DNA of 64,000 nt from positions 4,579 to 68,578 of the forward strand of contig CASDTC010000004.1 in assembly GCA_949283535.1 (NCBI GenBank). The letters run 5' to 3'. Numbering within the stretch: the first letter of the stretch is position 1; each line of letters opens with the position of its first letter. The translations under genes were made by a program, and so were the position numbers. Source of the DNA: an uncultured Pseudomonadota bacterium. GTDB taxonomy: Bacteria; Pseudomonadota; Alphaproteobacteria; Rs-D84. The notes under the pieces were generated by a model. The model did no database searches. It was not told the origin of the DNA and saw only the letters and a program-made list of their open reading frames with translations. Shown one piece after another: positions 2,934-62,764 of the stretch.

Positions 2934-4247
2934 TTATTTTAAAATATCGCCGGATTTTATATATTCTGGGGCATCGCGTGGTAATGATTTCTGGGCGCGG
3001 CGAGCATATTTTTTTGCGTTATCTGTATCGCCAATCATTTGATAGTATTCTGCGCGCGCCCAATCCGCACGACCATCATCATATGCGCGCGCCAGTACCC
3101 AATATGTTAATGGCGCGGGCGCCGCCAATATTGCCCGTTTGCATAATTCAATTGCCCGATCTATATCGCCAGATTTGCGTCGTTCGGTTAAAACCAATGC
3201 CAATGCGGTTTCAATCTGGGGCGCAGAATCTGTTAAATCCAATGATTTTTCATATGCACGAACACTGTCATCATAATGCCCCAGTTGGTATTCGATATCA
3301 CCCAATAATTCATAATAATATGGATTATCGGGATTTCGGGATATTAATGTCATTGTGCCAACGCGCGCACCATCCAGATTACCAACCTGCATCCGGGCAA
3401 TTGCACGCGCATATAATGCCGCATCAGATGTGTCAGAATTTGGATATTTTGTTGCGACATTATCGGCACTGTCCAGATAGCCAATTAATTTTGCCCGCAC
3501 CAATTCGAACCGCGCATTTTGTTTATCCGTTGGTGCATTCGCTGCAATGTAATCAGAATCTAATTTATCAATTTTATCACGAACATTTTTTAATCGTTCC
3601 GCCGTTAATGGATGATTTATTCTGTTCGGGTTTATGCGCGATTCCAAAACGCCGGTCATATTTTCCATTTGTCGAAAGACATCAATAAATCCATTTGGAT
3701 CTAAATCTGCATCTATCATTAATTGCACACCCATGTCATCGGCAATGCGTTCTTCGTCCCGGGTAAATGCCAACATAGACTGCTGGGCAATGCCGCCAGA
3801 ACCCGCCAAGACCCCCGCCCCCAGTGATGGATCGCCACCCGCGACCATTAATCCAATTCCCAATGCCTGGATTAACATTGTACGCGTCATTTCTGCACTG
3901 ATACGCGCCGACATCTGGGTCATATGTCCGCCCAATGTATGTCCCAGTTCGTGTGCAATTACTGCCTGTAATGCCGATGGATTTTTTATCTGGGTCAGCA
4001 AGCCGGTGTAAACATAAACATCTTCGCCGCCCATAACGAATGCATTAAAATCATCACTGTTTATTATATGCACGCGCAGACGACCATCTGGGATATTCGC
4101 CGCCGATGCCAACGGTGCAACAATTTCTGTTAATAATTCTTCGGTTTCAGTATCATTAATCAATGATGCCGCATGTGCGGGCATGGCACAAAATATACAA
4201 ATTAAAAATAAAAATATTTTACGCACTGATTCCAACCCCGCGGTCAA
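2934..4247 (-). CDS. M48-family periplasmic metalloprotease with TPR domain (BepA/YfgC-like)
   Basis: Signal peptide, HELGH zinc motif (AHELGHTLGGH), C-terminal TPR-like repeats. Confidence 0.75.
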   Translation of the reverse strand: MTAGLESVRKIFLFLICIFCAMPAHAASLINDTETEELLTEIVAPLASAANIPDGRLRVHIINSDDFNAFVMGGEDVYVYTGLLTQIKNPSALQAVIAHELGHTLGGHMTQMSARISAEMTRTMLIQALGIGLMVAGGDPSLGAGVLAGSGGIAQQSMLAFTRDEERIADDMGVQLMIDADLDPNGFIDVFRQMENMTGVLESRINPNRINHPLTAERLKNVRDKIDKLDSDYIAANAPTDKQNARFELVRAKLIGYLDSADNVATKYPNSDTSDAALYARAIARMQVGNLDGARVGTMTLISRNPDNPYYYELLGDIEYQLGHYDDSVRAYEKSLDLTDSAPQIETALALVLTERRKSGDIDRAIELCKRAILAAPAPLTYWVLARAYDDGRADWARAEYYQMIGDTDNAKKYARRAQKSLPRDAPEYIKSGDILK

Positions 4248-57263: not shown

Positions 57264-58505
57264 ATGAATATTTTTATGATGATTTTAGTCGCGATATTTA
57301 TGGTCGGTTTTTATATGATCAGCAGCCCCAGTCAACGCGTGCAAGAACAAGAAACAGAATATGCAATAAATCGGTCTGATTTACGCGCAATTGCGCAATG
57401 TGCATCGGCGGCACATAATGCACAAATCAAGGGAACAACATTCCAGGATATTTGTATCGAACAAAATTCTGTGGTCAGTCAATATGTTTGTCTGAACAGC
57501 AGCAAGCGTATAACTGATTGCGAAATAACCCGCAATAAAAAGCCCACATACAGTTATATAATCACAACATCGGCACCATTGGATGCAAATAATTATAATA
57601 ATATGCTGGAAGTGCTGGAAGAAGACTTTCCAGACGCGGGTTCTTTTGGAATTTTTCTGGATGGGAAAATTATGGCGGGCGGTATGGCAAATGCGCGTTC
57701 TGTGCCAGATGCAATAATTGATGAACTGGGATTAACAAATGGCCAATTAATATATTTTACCCAATATGAAATACCAGATGAAGAAACCGTGTTTACCGCA
57801 GCTGTTCAGACAGATGTTATTTGCCCGGTTGGCACGGTTAAAACATATCGATTTGGACGCTGGCAATGTATTGGAATTAACACAAAAATGGATTGCGGTG
57901 GCGATATGATATGGGATTCAGAATTATTGCAATGCGTGGCAGACGAATCCAAAAAACCATTATGTGCAGAACAGCAAACCGCCGTACTGGTTGACAGCGT
58001 ATGGGAATGCGTAAATCCATTCCCTGAAAAAGCATGCCCAGATAATATGATTGCACGATTGAATTATACAACATTGGAATGGGAATGCGTTGCCGACCCC
58101 AATTTAACCCAAGATGTAAAGAAGTGTCAAACCGCATCATCTGGTGCGATATTTGGCGCAATTGGATCAACATTACGTGTGCCAACTGCATCGTCATGCA
58201 CTGATTGCGAATTAATGATTACAGATCCGGAAACATGTGCAACCGCATGCGTTCCCGATCCAACAAAAATAAATTCCCCAGAATGTTATCCAGGAAATCC
58301 GCGTGAATGCAATGATTCATCACATGCATTTTATTTTGGTTTTCCATCCGCGTCATATGCAGCAAATGTTTCTGAGATCCAGGGGCATACCGTACCATTC
58401 GATACAATGCATTCGCAAAATAGAAAGTTTAACTGTCTGGATTGTGGCGACGGTGAAATTGATTCCGAACGTTCAATTCCACCATACATTGCGATATGTA
58501 AATAA
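57264..58505 (+). CDS. membrane-anchored cysteine-rich hypothetical protein
   Basis: N-terminal signal anchor. About 30 Cys in the C-terminal half (CPVGT, CGGD, CTDC, CLDCGDG). RBS aagggggaata. Confidence 0.5.
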   Translation: MNIFMMILVAIFMVGFYMISSPSQRVQEQETEYAINRSDLRAIAQCASAAHNAQIKGTTFQDICIEQNSVVSQYVCLNSSKRITDCEITRNKKPTYSYIITTSAPLDANNYNNMLEVLEEDFPDAGSFGIFLDGKIMAGGMANARSVPDAIIDELGLTNGQLIYFTQYEIPDEETVFTAAVQTDVICPVGTVKTYRFGRWQCIGINTKMDCGGDMIWDSELLQCVADESKKPLCAEQQTAVLVDSVWECVNPFPEKACPDNMIARLNYTTLEWECVADPNLTQDVKKCQTASSGAIFGAIGSTLRVPTASSCTDCELMITDPETCATACVPDPTKINSPECYPGNPRECNDSSHAFYFGFPSASYAANVSEIQGHTVPFDTMHSQNRKFNCLDCGDGEIDSERSIPPYIAICK

Positions 58506-58530: not shown

Positions 58531-59412
58531 TTAACGGCTATGATCTTCGCATTGTTTTGCAATCAAATATTCATAATCCTTTAATGCCTGTTCATATGTG
58601 CTGGAATCATAATATGTTTTATTTTCAAGTATTATTTTTAAACTTTCAATCTGATTATCTATATGCGCATCATAATCATATTCTAATGATACAGATTGTG
58701 ATGTTTCGTTATTTTTATTTATCATAGAAGCAGATGTCGCAGAATTGTCAATATGCATTATTGTCGGTTGAAACAATACTGGATTGTTTTTTTCTGTATT
58801 CGTTTTAACTGGCGACTGTGTATCCATATAATAAAGATTATTAATTCTGGAAATAATACCCGCACGATATTGCTTTGTTTTATCTTTAAAATCATTTATA
58901 TTTTGTGTTGTAATAATTTTTATACAATCCCGCAAATGTGCCAACATCTTGTATTCACAATTAGAATGCCCATTTTCTAGTCTGATTGTTAAAATTTGAC
59001 CAATTATAGTATCATTCCATGCACCATTTGGATGCGCATTCAGGGTCATAAAACATGTTAAGTGATATCGGATTTTGGAAAATATTTCCATATTTTCTGG
59101 CGTTAATGCATGATTATTTGATGAATTACAAAAATGATACAGGCTGTTTTTACCCTTGAATCTAAATGGTGATACAGTACCAAATCGTACCGGATTATAT
59201 GACATTTCACGCCATAATGCATTACAAATTACATCGCCATCAATATGCCCAATATTAATATTAATAAACTCTATTGGCTTATCCCATTGCCATGATGTTT
59301 TGATTTGTCCAACAGAATTACTTAAACTGCGGGCTGTAAAATCGCCAAAATACGCCTTGCCAGTATTATATTTTAATATATTTTCAATTTGTTTATCGGT
59401 AAGTTTCGACAT
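58531..59412 (-). CDS. hypothetical protein encoded in an AT-rich region
   Basis: 293 aa from MSKLTDKQIEN. RBS agagg. Asn/Lys/Ile-rich. No homologs recognised. Confidence 0.4.
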   Translation of the reverse strand: MSKLTDKQIENILKYNTGKAYFGDFTARSLSNSVGQIKTSWQWDKPIEFININIGHIDGDVICNALWREMSYNPVRFGTVSPFRFKGKNSLYHFCNSSNNHALTPENMEIFSKIRYHLTCFMTLNAHPNGAWNDTIIGQILTIRLENGHSNCEYKMLAHLRDCIKIITTQNINDFKDKTKQYRAGIISRINNLYYMDTQSPVKTNTEKNNPVLFQPTIMHIDNSATSASMINKNNETSQSVSLEYDYDAHIDNQIESLKIILENKTYYDSSTYEQALKDYEYLIAKQCEDHSR

Positions 59413-59780
59413 GGACGCCTCTTTTTTAAAAAGATAACACAAAAAATTATTTTTGTCAATGTATTTTTGCAAATGCAACGGAATCGCCTTTCAATATATA
59501 GTTATCAACACACAATTTTATGTCCATATTTTGTATTTTTTGCATAAAAACGAATCATTTCATATGTAAAAAAATATTATTTTTTTACACAAAATGGTGT
59601 TTTGTATGTAATTTAATATGAATCGCATATTATCAGAGGCGCAGAAAATCCCACTTTTTAAAAGTAAAGGAAAAAATAAAAAAAATTTTTATTTTTATAT
59701 GTTGCCGAACACATATATATACTATATATTGTTATCAAATTTAGAAATTAACCACTATATATTGATATTGAGGTATAAAA

Positions 59781-61838
59781 ATGTCAGTACCAGAAAGTGA
59801 TAATAAAATACAGATTATTCCGACACTTAATACGCGTTTAAAAGTTGTTCAAAAGCGTTCGGGGGAATCGGTTCCATTTGATTCGAAAAAAATATTCGAT
59901 GCAATTAAAAAGGCAGTTGCTGTCACTCATGAAATATCAGATGAGCAAATTGCCAATATAACACAAAATGCATTAACAAAACTGGAATTACAATTTATTG
60001 ATAAAAATCCGACTGTCGAAGATGTCCAAGAAGCAGTTATCGAATCACTGATGGACGCACATGCGTATAAGACAGCACAATCTTATATTATTTATCGTCA
60101 AAAACGGACGGAAATTCGTGATTCGTATGTTGATGCAATCGAAGTTATCGAAGGCTATGTTGGTGGTTCAAACTGGCGCATAAAAGAAAATGCAAATGTT
60201 GGATATTCCATTGGTGGGCTGATTTTGCGCACATCTGAACGGGTGACGGCGGAATACTGGCTGAATCTGTACCCACGCGAAGTCGCCGAAGCACACAAGA
60301 ATGCATCGGTTCATATTCATGACCTGGGGTGGTTAACCGGGTATTGCGCCGGTTGGTCATTGCGCGAGTTATTGTACGAAGGGTTCAATGGCGTCCCTGG
60401 ATACTTGCAATGCGAGCCAGCACGGCATATGGCAACGGCGATTTCGCATATGGTGAACTTCTTGGGTACATTACAGAATGAATTTGCCGGCGCCCAGGCG
60501 TTTTCTTCGGTGGATACATATCTGGCACCATATGTTCGCGTGGATAATCTGTCGTATGCCGATGTTAAAAATGCCATGCAAACATTAATCTTTAACTGTG
60601 CGGTGCCATGTCGTTGGGGAACCCAGACACCATTTATTAACTTTACATTTGATTGGACATGTCCAGAAGACTTAAAAAACCAGCATCCGTTCGTTGGCAA
60701 AAAGCAAATGGATTTCACATATGGCGATTTACAACATGAAATGGACATTATTAATAAAGCATTTTTAGATGTTATGACCGAAGGCGATGCAATGGGACGT
60801 CCATTTACATTCCCAATTCCAACATATAATATAACCAAAGATTTCCCATGGGATCATCCAAATGTAAAACCGTTATTTGACCTGGCGGCAAAATATGGAA
60901 TTCCGAATTTCCAGAATTTCTTGAATTCCGATTTAAATCCAACAGATGTGCGTTCAATGTGTTGTCGGTTGCGTTTGGATGTGCGTGAATTATTAAAGCG
61001 CGGGGGCGGTCTGTTTGGGTCTGCGGAAAAAACGGGTTCAATTGGTGTTGTTACAATTAACCTGGCGCGATTGGGATATACACACAAAGGTGATCGGGAT
61101 GGGCTGTTCCGCGAATTAAAGCGTTTGTTGGATTTAGCCCGTGATTCGTTGGAAATCAAACGGCGCATAATTACAAAAAATATGGAACGCGGGCTGTATC
61201 CATTTACACGCCGTTATCTGGGCAATTGGAATCACCATTTTTCAACAATTGGGGTAAATGGCGCAAACGAAATGGTTCGCAATTTTACAAATGATAAAGA
61301 AAATATTGCGACACCAATGGGTAAAAAATTGGTATTGGATTTAATGGATTTTATTCGTGAAAACCTGGTTCAATTCCAAGAGCAAACAGGCAATCTGTAT
61401 AATTTAGAAGCCACCCCAGCCGAGGGATGTTCATACCGATTTGCAAAAACAGATGTCAAAAATTTCCCAGACATCATAACGGCGGGAACCAAAGATGCAC
61501 CATATTATACAAATTCAACACAATTGCCAGTGAATTATACAGATGACCCATTCGTTGCACTGGAACACCAAGAAGATTTACAGCGCAAATATACGGGCGG
61601 GACAATGTTGCACCTGTATATGGGCGAACCGGTATCCAGTGGGGCGGCGGCGGAAAAAATTGTGCGTACGATTTTTGAAAACTACAAGATTCCGTATATG
61701 ACATTAACACCGACATTTTCAATCTGTCCAAAGCATGGATATTTACCAGGTCGGCATGAATTCTGTCCAAAGTGTGATGCGGAAATTGCCGCGAATCAGA
61801 ATGCAGTGGAATCAGCGGCAGAAACAGTTTTGAAATAA
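59781..61838 (+). CDS. nrdD: anaerobic ribonucleoside-triphosphate reductase, catalytic body (no glycyl-radical motif in this ORF)
   Basis: ATP-cone N-terminus and class III RNR core. C-terminal zinc-ribbon ICPKHGY...FCPKCD. Ends 30 nt before the ORF that carries the Gly-radical motif. Confidence 0.85.
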   Translation: MSVPESDNKIQIIPTLNTRLKVVQKRSGESVPFDSKKIFDAIKKAVAVTHEISDEQIANITQNALTKLELQFIDKNPTVEDVQEAVIESLMDAHAYKTAQSYIIYRQKRTEIRDSYVDAIEVIEGYVGGSNWRIKENANVGYSIGGLILRTSERVTAEYWLNLYPREVAEAHKNASVHIHDLGWLTGYCAGWSLRELLYEGFNGVPGYLQCEPARHMATAISHMVNFLGTLQNEFAGAQAFSSVDTYLAPYVRVDNLSYADVKNAMQTLIFNCAVPCRWGTQTPFINFTFDWTCPEDLKNQHPFVGKKQMDFTYGDLQHEMDIINKAFLDVMTEGDAMGRPFTFPIPTYNITKDFPWDHPNVKPLFDLAAKYGIPNFQNFLNSDLNPTDVRSMCCRLRLDVRELLKRGGGLFGSAEKTGSIGVVTINLARLGYTHKGDRDGLFRELKRLLDLARDSLEIKRRIITKNMERGLYPFTRRYLGNWNHHFSTIGVNGANEMVRNFTNDKENIATPMGKKLVLDLMDFIRENLVQFQEQTGNLYNLEATPAEGCSYRFAKTDVKNFPDIITAGTKDAPYYTNSTQLPVNYTDDPFVALEHQEDLQRKYTGGTMLHLYMGEPVSSGAAAEKIVRTIFENYKIPYMTLTPTFSICPKHGYLPGRHEFCPKCDAEIAANQNAVESAAETVLK

Positions 61839-61869
61839 ACAACAAAACAAAGAAAGGGAGGAAAACATT

Positions 61870-62058
61870 ATGTCAGCAACAGAAAACGCGCAAAGAACAC
61901 CATGTGAAGTATTCTCACGTTCAATGGGTTTTATCAGACCTGTTTCCAACTTTAATATCGGAAAATATTCTGAATTTTGCGAAAGAAAAACATTTACAGA
62001 GGCAAACAGCCTGACCACAGGGCAACGCCACAGTGAATTAATGAAAAAAGCGGCATAA
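61870..62058 (+). CDS. separate 62-aa ORF carrying the NrdD-type glycyl-radical motif
   Basis: EVFSRSMGFIRPVSNFNIGKYSEFCERK matches the NrdD C-terminal RVxGY....WN.GK..E..DR pattern. Strong RBS aaagggagg. Either a genuinely split NrdD or a frameshift. Confidence 0.5.
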   Translation: MSATENAQRTPCEVFSRSMGFIRPVSNFNIGKYSEFCERKTFTEANSLTTGQRHSELMKKAA

Positions 62059-62062
62059 GGTT

Positions 62063-62764
62063 ATGAGAGAGATTCAGATTGGTGGATTGGTGTCGTTCAC
62101 GACAATTGATTATCCCGGGAAATTGGCAGCGGTGCTGTTTCTGGTGGGATGTCCATTGCGATGTGCGTATTGTTCCAATCCACATCTGATGTCTGTACAT
62201 GATGGCGAATACGACCCAAACAAAGTTTTCGATTGGCTGAAAAGTCGTGTTGGAAAATTAGAGGCAGTTGTATTTTCTGGCGGTGAAGCATTAATGCACG
62301 GCGATGCATTAATTGATTATATGCGCCGTGTTCGCGATTTGGGATTCGCAATTGGGCTGCATACAAATGGTTTTTATCCAGAAACGCTGGCACGTGCCGC
62401 CGATGTTGTTGACTGGATTGGTTTGGATTACAAGGCACGGCGTGAAAAATACGGCGAACTGGTTGGGCAAAATATCGCGCATGACCATATGATTCGCAGC
62501 CTGGATATATGGCAATCCACCGGCAAGGATTTTGAGGTTCGCATTACATGCGATCCGCGATTTGTATCAAAAATGGATTTGATGGAAATTGCAAATGATT
62601 TGCATATGCGTGGGGTAAAAAATTTTGCGGTTCAAAAATATATTCCGCACTATGAAGATTCAACACATAACACAACACCAGAACAGCGGAATCAATTCTT
62701 TAATGATGACAATTTGCGTAATACAATAAATGCACTGTTTGATTCTGTTATTTGGCGTGAATAG
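62063..62764 (+). CDS. nrdG: anaerobic ribonucleotide reductase activating protein (radical SAM)
   Basis: CPLRCAYCSNP CxxxCxxC motif. 233 aa. Confidence 0.85.
   Translation: MREIQIGGLVSFTTIDYPGKLAAVLFLVGCPLRCAYCSNPHLMSVHDGEYDPNKVFDWLKSRVGKLEAVVFSGGEALMHGDALIDYMRRVRDLGFAIGLHTNGFYPETLARAADVVDWIGLDYKARREKYGELVGQNIAHDHMIRSLDIWQSTGKDFEVRITCDPRFVSKMDLMEIANDLHMRGVKNFAVQKYIPHYEDSTHNTTPEQRNQFFNDDNLRNTINALFDSVIWRE

Follow-up and report, generated by a model that had tools for sequence, protein, structure and literature searches.

A class III ribonucleotide reductase that appears to carry its glycyl-radical domain on a separate 62-residue subunit

The 64,000-nucleotide (nt) stretch of DNA analysed here in its entirety (hereafter, the window), which comes from an uncultured alphaproteobacterium (contig CASDTC010000004.1, positions 4,579 to 68,578), contains a locus for a class III ribonucleotide reductase (RNR) that consists of three co-oriented open reading frames (ORFs). 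These are nrdD, the product of which is the catalytic chain (the body), an ORF of 62 codons, and nrdG, which encodes the radical S-adenosylmethionine (SAM) activase. The features of the locus, in window coordinates and with protein lengths in amino acids (aa), are as follows.

59781–61838, forward strand: nrdD body, the class III RNR catalytic chain, 685 aa; an ORF with an ATP-cone, a barrel and a zinc ribbon and with no glycyl-radical loop.
59844–60113, forward strand: ATP-cone of the body, aa 22–111 (Pfam PF03477, E 1e-20; predicted local distance difference test score (pLDDT) of ~68–90 in the AlphaFold2 (AF2) model).
60960–60965, forward strand: codons TGTTGT of Cys394-Cys395 within SMCCRL, the presumed finger-loop cysteines, read from the sequence and invariant in 23 homologues.
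61725–61775, forward strand: C-terminal zinc ribbon of the body, C649-x2-H652 ... C662-x2-C665; these four residues are invariant in the alignment of 23 homologues.
61776–61838, forward strand: tail of the body past the zinc ribbon, DAEIAANQNAVESAAETVLK, with the stop codon TAA; it opens with the split-specific D-x-E-h-h-A-x-K.
61839–61869, forward strand: intergenic spacer of 31 nt with the Shine-Dalgarno sequence AAAGGGAGG at 61853–61861, read directly from the sequence.
61870–62058, forward strand: putative stand-alone glycyl-radical mini-subunit, 62 aa, MSATENAQRTPCEVFSRSMGFIRPVSNFNIGKYSEFCERKTFTEANSLTTGQRHSELMKKAA, matching the last ~31–34 positions of NrdD models.
61927–61929, forward strand: GGT codon of Gly20, the predicted radical-bearing glycine, in the R-x-x-G-[FY] fingerprint of glycyl radical enzymes (GREs); invariant in stand-alone and fused forms.
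62063–62764, forward strand: nrdG, radical-SAM activase of the NrdG2 type, 233 aa (TIGR02495; Pfam Radical_SAM and Fer4_12).
62150–62173, forward strand: cluster motif CPLRCAYC (CxxxCxxC), aa 30–37 of the nrdG product, read from the sequence.

The C-terminus of the body reads ...FSICPKHGYLPGRHEFCPKCDAEIAANQNAVESAAETVLK* (also written ...SICPKHGYLPGRHEFCPKCDAEIAANQNAVESAAETVLK), with the stop codon TAA at 61836–61838. The body and the 62-codon ORF are read in different frames. The ATG of the small ORF, at 61870, has the AAAGGGAGG box 8 nt on its 5' side, and a gap of 4 nt separates the stop codon of this ORF from the ATG of nrdG. The original prediction, which was made from the letters of the window alone, had described a 685-aa body ending just past the zinc ribbon, a 31-nt spacer with a strong Shine-Dalgarno sequence followed by a 62-aa ORF, and nrdG close behind in an intact operon; this description holds, with the coordinates of the spacer and the small ORF correct to the base.

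Pfam and NCBIfam scans identify the body and the 62-aa product as complementary pieces of one family model. The body covers positions 1–529 of the 562 positions of the Pfam model NRDD (PF13597; 568.8 bits against a cutoff of 26.2, E 1.7e-170) and positions 3–657 of the 684 of NCBIfam NF006126 (PRK08270; 1034 bits, cutoff 548), and it ends 20 aa past the zinc ribbon, the radical loop R-x-x-G-[FY] being missing. The model positions absent from the body (530–562 in Pfam, 658–684 in NF006126) are found on the next ORF, the product of which matches positions 532–562 of 562 in PF13597 (E 1.5e-4) and 649–682 of 684 in NF006126, so that this ORF does supply the missing NrdD glycyl-radical motif, as had been proposed. 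In the Pfam scan at E up to 1, the 62-aa protein did not match PF01228 (Gly_radical), its only matches being NRDD and a spurious lipoprotein model, and a phmmer search of the sequences in the PDB at E up to 10 yielded no match. All models put the body in class III, the models of class I and class II RNRs being matched only by its ATP-cone, and its relatives in the PDB are 8p23, 4coi/4u3e, 9d3x and 1h78; the nrdG product matches TIGR02495 (NrdG2) with 184.9 bits (cutoff 131). Cys394 and Cys395 are invariant across 23 split and fused homologues, and we take them to be the thiyl-radical cysteines of the finger loop, a role assigned from the known NrdD proteins of T4, Tm and Nb. A Cys-Cys pair in the finger loop is one of the criteria for NrdD2, the thioredoxin-using type of N. 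bacilliformis, the others being the lack of a Met and a conserved Glu in the active site.

The 62-aa product combines a leader that includes the invariant R9 and C12-E13, the loop R17-S-M-G20-F, the residues N29-x-G31-K32, E35 and R39, and a clade-specific C-terminal helix that ends in KKAA. Its homologues form at least 269 clusters (E up to 0.01), and the 120 clusters listed are 58–92 aa long and 76–95% identical to it; several homologues come from contigs of 0.1–1 Mb in metagenome-assembled genomes (MAGs) of gut and rumen Alphaproteobacteria, and the exact 62-aa protein is seen on four contigs from four samples. The best 120 homologues of the body are 668–713 aa long (the extra length of the 713-aa homologue, P0178, is an N-terminal extension), and the five with inspected ends all stop directly past the zinc ribbon. 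Contigs that encode the exact peptide or a relative of it keep the order of body, small ORF and nrdG in differing neighbourhoods. As to whether close relatives share the stop, a check suggested at the outset, the gene is split in every relative examined: at 31 Candidatus Enterousia loci the spacer measures 20–58 nt, all three frame offsets of the small ORF from the body (0, +1 and +2) occur, and the ATG of the small ORF always has a box of the GGAG type on its 5' side. The Shine-Dalgarno sequences of the relatives read (A)AGGGAGG or AGGAG and lie 6–9 nt before the ATG of the small ORF.

Among 67 clade members, 24 columns of the small protein are invariant, including those of the C-terminal tail RKTFTE-N-L--G-RH--L---A. 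The small ORF has a pairwise ratio of nonsynonymous to synonymous substitution rates (dN/dS) of 0.08, which denotes purifying selection comparable to that on the body (0.04) and on nrdG (0.11), values that can be only approximate because dS is saturated (>1, and ~1.5 for the small ORF). In a set of 141 diverse stand-alone proteins, G20, N29, G31, K32, E35 and R39 are invariant, and the stand-alone consensus reads L-x-D-x-E-R-[TQ]-x-C-E-[VI]-W-[TS]-R-V-M-G-Y-[HY]-R-P-V-S-x-F-N-x-G-K-x-[SG]-E-F-x-E-R-x-x-F-x-E. The SMGF loop is present as originally described; the form with which it was compared, (C/T)GY, has to be corrected, given that the family norm is VMGY (RVMGY in 104 of 148 stand-alone representatives), and RSMGF is a variant of the Enterousia clade and of some phage copies.

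Certain other features of the stand-alone proteins can be recorded alongside. Of their 148 C-termini (P0241–P0388), 14 are -AA, against an expectation of ~1.8, and 9 are -AE, among them several -AAE; the whole Enterousia clade ends in KKAA (62047–62055 in the window), and such ends are reminiscent of ssrA-like ClpXP degrons. In 32 of the 148 proteins, the tail past E-x-x-x-R contains at least two cysteines (CGCSK, CCCRK, CTCRGK), a feature that recalls the redox-active pair of cysteines at the C-terminus of class I and class II RNRs. The 90%-identity cluster that contains the 62-aa protein of the window is represented by a 233-aa NrdG and includes both members of 61–62 aa and members of 233 aa, which is probably a clustering artefact, or else the two groups are bridged by gene calls that fuse the adjacent ORFs.

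The split arrangement extends far beyond this clade. When 1.84 billion representative proteins were searched with a profile built from the clade peptides, 2424 of them matched at E up to 1e-3, with E values of 1e-36 to 1e-10 reached; the best 150 of the 2424 are all short (47–152 aa, mostly 55–80). A pattern search of one genome per GTDB species found a relative of the mini-protein encoded in at least 593 species genomes, and the best 80 loci, which were analysed, comprise 66 split, 2 fused and 12 lone ones. At the 66 split loci the body ends past the zinc ribbon and is followed by a separately initiated ORF of 52–79 aa, with spacers from -8 to +221 nt, all frames, and either a Shine-Dalgarno sequence of its own or an ATGA stop/start overlap; nrdG comes next after the mini-subunit in 65 of the 66. 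One of them, L010, counts as split by virtue of an in-frame TAA between the body and the small ORF. The split loci include those of cultured Duganella, Undibacterium, Pusillimonas, Thiocapsa, Noviherbaspirillum, Alcaligenes, Trinickia, Castellaniella, Acidithiobacillus, Massilia and Allopusillimonas, as well as those of MAGs labelled Sutterella, Coriobacteriia, Holosporales, Parachlamydiales, Elusimicrobiota, Nomurabacteria and Gracilibacteria. At ten split loci (L037, L045, L048, L050, L055, L059, L074, L079, L085 and L086), automated start-calling gave bodies of 566–618 aa that exclude the ATP-cone; these may be true cone-less variants or the result of wrong starts in high-GC genomes.

On plasmids, a search of PLSDB finds the small ORF on 161 plasmids and megaplasmids, 132 of them from Ralstonia. 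In the annotation of R. solanacearum RS638, a 683-aa 'ribonucleoside triphosphate reductase' is followed, with an ATGA overlap, by a 58-aa 'anaerobic ribonucleoside-triphosphate reductase' and by the activase. The RefSeq record of C. necator H16 pHG1 lists a 676-aa body, a 142-nt spacer, a 66-aa coding sequence named nrdD (H16_RS32675) and the activase; this small ORF, which recurs on 79 contigs, was first deposited as 'oxidoreductase' (AAP85991.1). Such piecemeal labels imply that annotation pipelines name the small fragment by similarity, and in the genome paper of C. metallidurans NrdDG is given as Rmet_5137 and Rmet_5139, the gene between them being skipped. Furthermore, the nrdDG genes of pHG1 are required for anaerobic (denitrifying) growth on nitrate (PMC2864759). 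The pHG1 locus being split, this requirement indicates, if indirectly, that a split locus works in vivo.

Where in the protein does the break fall? A query with the fused C-terminus from Gleimia retrieved 576 proteins at E up to 1e-10, and in the 119 of the retrieved proteins that were examined the glycyl-radical domain loop and the upstream segment of the body are on the same chain. The linker between them measures 3–33 aa, with modes at 3 and 11, in the 100 of 119 proteins that match the pattern CxxC, linker, C-E-V-W; most of the remaining 19 are likewise fused, with slightly different spacing. The named sources include Propionibacteriaceae, Cellulomonas, Microbacterium, Corynebacterium durum, Actinomyces oris and Halorhodospira, and the two fused loci among the best 80 of the species scan, from Mobiluncus and Gleimia, both belong to Actinomycetaceae. 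Because the fused linkers vary exactly at the break point, the split falls in a naturally variable linker, which is the outcome of the alignment to NrdD homologues that had been suggested as a check.

Stand-alone and fused proteins share one conservation profile over the stretch from -8 to +24, counted from the radical glycine, which is itself invariant in both sets. Outside this core, two elements set the split systems apart. An arginine at position -11 from the glycine (R9 in the window), accompanied by L-16, D-14 and E-12, is present in 99% of the stand-alone forms, whereas the fused forms have no dominant residue there, the commonest being Pro at 29%. Directly past the last zinc Cys, the bodies of split loci (57 non-redundant ones) carry the tail D-x-E-h-h-A-x-K, with D in 100%, E in 88%, A in 77% and K in 68%; the tail is found in split loci only, and in fused forms the radical glycine follows 16 residues past the last zinc Cys. 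The leader element around R9 and the tail of the body may be a non-covalent substitute for the lost peptide bond.

A structure of body plus peptide was modelled with AF2 from a block alignment of the window body and peptide with 34 bodies, 60 fused fragments and 55 peptides (mean pLDDT 59.9; predicted template modelling score 0.48); AF2 on the concatenated body and peptide with no alignment gave a useless model (pLDDT 37). In the block-alignment model, the ATP-cone and residues 420–747 are moderately to highly confident, and Gly20 is at the turn of a beta-hairpin (strands 698–703 and 706–709) followed by two helices, with a pLDDT of ~70–80 for the peptide. The modelled hairpin with Gly20 at its tip fits a GRE radical loop. 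The top Foldseek matches are all class III RNRs (9d3x, 8p23 and 4u3e; E 1e-16 to 1e-13, template modelling scores 0.35–0.45).

Could the locus be something other than a two-subunit enzyme? The original prediction had itself considered a recent stop mutation or a sequencing error, that is, a nonsense, frameshift or sequencing event that broke a single-chain nrdD, and one window alone would not suffice to rule against this explanation, fused relatives of the same subfamily being known. Yet all close relatives share the break, as do at least 66 additional species genomes, the spacers, frames and ribosome-binding sites vary between the carriers, the small ORF has its own Shine-Dalgarno sequence and ATG, both pieces are under purifying selection, and the exact peptide was recovered from four samples; the mutation or error is thereby refuted, to the extent that we assign it a negligible probability. 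The idea that the small ORF is spurious, an untranslated relic the similarity of which to NrdD has been decaying since the split, can draw on the fact that short ORFs often are spurious and that the window peptide is below the Pfam threshold. It is just as hard to entertain in the face of the 24 invariant columns, a dN/dS of 0.08 at dS ~1.5, the strength of the profile matches across 1.84 billion proteins and the conserved Shine-Dalgarno sequence. Programmed recoding, by frameshift or read-through, would join body and peptide into one chain, as might be imagined for the loci in which a single stop separates two ORFs in the same frame (L006–L008 and L010) or in which an ATGA overlap is present. 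All three frame relations, however, occur among close relatives, some spacers reach 142–221 nt with multiple stops (C. necator, L041), no slippery site or conserved spacer sequence was seen, and the mini-protein also exists in lone copies with no body nearby; given the variable frames and spacers and the dedicated ribosome-binding site, a strong Shine-Dalgarno sequence and ATG being conserved before the small ORF, recoding is disfavoured and appears very improbable.

A more serious contender is that the mini-protein is purely a spare part or a regulator (a repair part, an NrdG decoy or an inhibitor) and that the body is radicalised in some other way. GrcA provides a precedent for this with pyruvate formate-lyase (PFL), and orphan copies on phages and chromosomes indicate that deployment apart from nrdD is possible. 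However, the body has no R-x-x-G-[FY] past its zinc ribbon, which leaves neither a loop to be repaired nor another site for the radical, the mini-protein retains every residue of a functional loop, and the operon link to nrdD and nrdG is maintained in 65 of the 80 genome loci, so we consider this role, taken on its own, unlikely. The analogy with GrcA that was drawn at the outset accordingly survives in part: the free-standing glycyl-radical domain is common to both, whereas the mini-protein would be obligate in its operon and by sequence does not belong to the Gly_radical family of GrcA and PFL. An intein or intron between the body and the small ORF was also considered and was rejected, the spacer being just 31 nt long.

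We are thus left with the interpretation, highly probable in our judgement, that the locus encodes a genuine two-polypeptide class III RNR with the glycyl-radical domain on a separate 62-aa subunit activated by NrdG. The two-subunit alternative of the original prediction is supported by the presence of a separate gene in every relative of the window locus that was examined, with a spread far beyond one strain, and since the body carries no radical loop, the mini-subunit would be obligate in the window operon. Under this interpretation, the three genes would be co-transcribed and each translated from its own start; NrdG would take the C-alpha hydrogen from Gly20 of the mini-subunit, the hairpin of which would dock into the NrdD barrel, the likely contacts being the peptide leader L-x-D-x-E-R-[TQ]-x-C and the split-specific tail of the body past the zinc ribbon. 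The glycyl radical, placed beside Cys394/395, would then generate a thiyl radical and drive nucleotide reduction as in single-chain NrdD. We infer NrdG activation, docking and the selective advantage of the split form from the comparative evidence above and from what is known of GREs. In these enzymes, oxygen destroys the protein by cutting the chain at the radical glycine, so that the split would confine the damage to an exchangeable part of 7 kDa; it might also let the loop travel to the activase. Several of the named carriers (Cupriavidus, Ralstonia, Castellaniella, Alcaligenes and Acidithiobacillus) are denitrifiers or facultative aerobes, a lifestyle that fits the oxygen-damage rationale without proving it.

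Several considerations weigh against this interpretation. The case is built on sequences, from which both the radical on the small protein and the complex of body and peptide are predicted, and the oxygen-damage rationale is extrapolated from known GRE chemistry. The 62-aa peptide scores 21.1 bits, under the gathering threshold of 26.2 for Pfam NRDD, although its RVMGY-type relatives pass at 31 bits; the saturation of dS bears on the strength of purifying selection; and residues 108–420 of the AF2 model are poor (pLDDT <50), so that the docking of the loop beside the Cys pair is not assessable in it. Finally, our searches of open-access full texts and bioRxiv found no description of a split NrdD, and an earlier description elsewhere is possible.

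The mini-protein is also encoded on its own. At 12 of the 80 genome loci (L030, L036, L044, L046, L047, L054, L057, L060, L067, L072, L075 and L077) there is neither nrdD nor nrdG within 4 kb; at three of these (L030, L046 and L054) the neighbourhoods look phage-like, judging from ORF translations. At L060 and L075, the mini-protein lies between a helicase-like ORF of ~760 aa and a 178-aa ORF, which resemble UvrD and rubrerythrin in their translations. In IMG/VR, 415 viral contigs encode a relative of the mini-protein, and 76 of the best 80 viral loci lack both an NrdD body and nrdG within 4 kb; the figure is unchanged within 10 kb (the sequence available per locus for this wider check had a median length of 13.5 kb). 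Among the neighbours are an endolysin and an integrase at L105 (mini-protein at 3980–4195) and a Holliday-junction resolvase and an endolysin at L152 (mini-protein at 3854–4156). The viral peptides match PHROG 4132 ('unknown function'), and the nearest relatives of the RSMGF-type window peptide outside Enterousia are viral copies, with 75–76% identity over ~38–40 aligned residues. GenBank isolate phages yielded two weak matches only, one to a faecal metagenomic phage and one to ANMV-1, the latter inside a gene annotated as anaerobic RNR; isolate phages thus being essentially devoid of the mini-protein, the phage signal rests on the uncultivated IMG/VR contigs.

Two kinds of viral loci deserve mention. 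At L117:1725–3979 (forward strand), two tandem radical-SAM proteins of 336 and 432 aa lie directly upstream of the mini-protein (3980–4165); they match PHROG 1802 and Pfam Radical_SAM and Fer4_12, have Cys-rich C-terminal regions, and could be a phage-encoded activase pair or unrelated maturases. An NrdD body is found near the viral mini-protein, with no nrdG, at L202:7350–9755 and at L219 and L220:12859–15258, ~2.7 kb downstream of the mini-protein in the last two; phages of this kind may rely on the activase of the host. By analogy with Y06I of T4, the lone viral mini-protein looks like a candidate phage auxiliary gene. It is tempting to go further and to propose that a large subfamily of class III RNRs uses a diffusible, replaceable and autonomous glycyl-radical cofactor of ~60 aa, lone copies of which are carried by phages to load or repair host NrdD and so to boost the supply of deoxynucleoside triphosphates during infection at low oxygen, a tentative proposal that we would not yet favour over its negation. 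If true, PFL would no longer be the only GRE to be served by a spare-part or trans-acting radical domain.

With respect to the literature, reviews present class III RNR as NrdD plus NrdG and describe a split form only for the class II enzyme of P. aeruginosa, and spare-part radical domains are known only for PFL (PMC13450708, a review of June 2026; PMC8683613, from 2021). The two-gene class III RNR is real, conserved, widespread and annotated piecemeal, and it is apparently undescribed in the literature that we searched. For the A. eutrophus enzyme, Siedow et al. (1999) reportedly placed the radical at 'G650 of NrdD'. In the 676-aa body encoded by C. necator pHG1 (L092:777–2807), G650 falls in the zinc-ribbon motif CPTHG650Y, and the actual glycine of the loop is G36 in the product of the adjacent 66-aa ORF, H16_RS32675. 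If the assignment is as reported, it needs revisiting, and the true radical site would be on an overlooked small ORF.

For the GRE field, in which the existence of spare parts beyond PFL has been posed as a question (PMC13450708, PMC8683613), the mini-protein family is a concrete and abundant candidate, and the question is directly testable because culturable, tractable hosts carry the split operon (C. necator H16, R. solanacearum and Acidithiobacillus). In practical terms, bodies of ~680 aa that have no loop should not be taken for truncated, the ORF of ~60 aa is often labelled 'hypothetical' or left uncalled, and heterologous expression of 'nrdDG' from split carriers would fail without the small ORF. 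The split form also suggests how oxygen-exposed organisms could afford an oxygen-suicidal enzyme, and possibly adds a new phage auxiliary gene.

As for the surroundings of the operon in the window, the segment 59705–59770, 5' of nrdD, is AT-rich and partly palindromic (ACACATATATATACTATATATTGTT ... CCACTATATATTGATATT) and resembles NrdR boxes; a search 5' of nrdD with the NrdR-box consensus turned up a single site with 3 mismatches, no more than chance would give. Just upstream of the operon are two ORFs with no Pfam match, namely a Cys-rich ORF of 413 aa with a hydrophobic N-terminal segment (57264–58505, forward strand) and an ORF of 315 aa (58531–59478, reverse strand).

How does the window system compare with those already known? 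The single-chain NrdD plus NrdG systems (E. coli, phage T4, T. maritima, P. copri and S. thermophilus; NF006126/PRK08270) have the same ATP-cone, barrel, finger-loop Cys and zinc ribbon, the same loop motif R-x-x-G-[FY]...N-x-G-K-x-x-E...R and an adjacent radical-SAM activase; in contrast to them, the window system has the loop as a separate product, an extra tail on the body and an extra leader on the peptide. The autonomous PFL cofactors GrcA/YfiD (E. coli) and Y06I (phage T4) are small free-standing glycyl-radical domains that are charged by the cognate activase and serve a larger catalytic chain, as is predicted for the mini-subunit; phage-encoded copies exist in both cases, and the oxygen-labile part is replaceable in both, by prediction in the present one. 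GrcA, however, is a protein of 127 aa, homologous to the C-terminus of PFL (Gly_radical), and rescues an enzyme whose chain normally includes a loop, whereas the window mini-subunit has ~60 aa, is homologous to the C-terminus of NrdD and is the sole source of the loop in its operon. The lone phage and chromosomal copies are a closer parallel to GrcA and T4 Y06I than the window copy is, inasmuch as in these the presumptive radical domain is encoded apart from its enzyme, which is not so in the window. The split class II RNR of P. aeruginosa, NrdJa/NrdJb, is likewise encoded by two consecutive ORFs, with a C-terminal module (zinc finger, Cys pair) on the second; it differs in being a class II enzyme that uses adenosylcobalamin and in that NrdJb is a large folded protein on which no radical is stored. 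The alpha and beta subunits of class I RNR offer a functional analogy only, that of a stable radical kept on a separate, dissociable subunit. There, the proteins are unrelated to those of the window, and the radical of a ferritin-like metallo-subunit acts through long-range proton-coupled electron transfer, as opposed to the direct insertion of a glycyl loop that is envisaged here.

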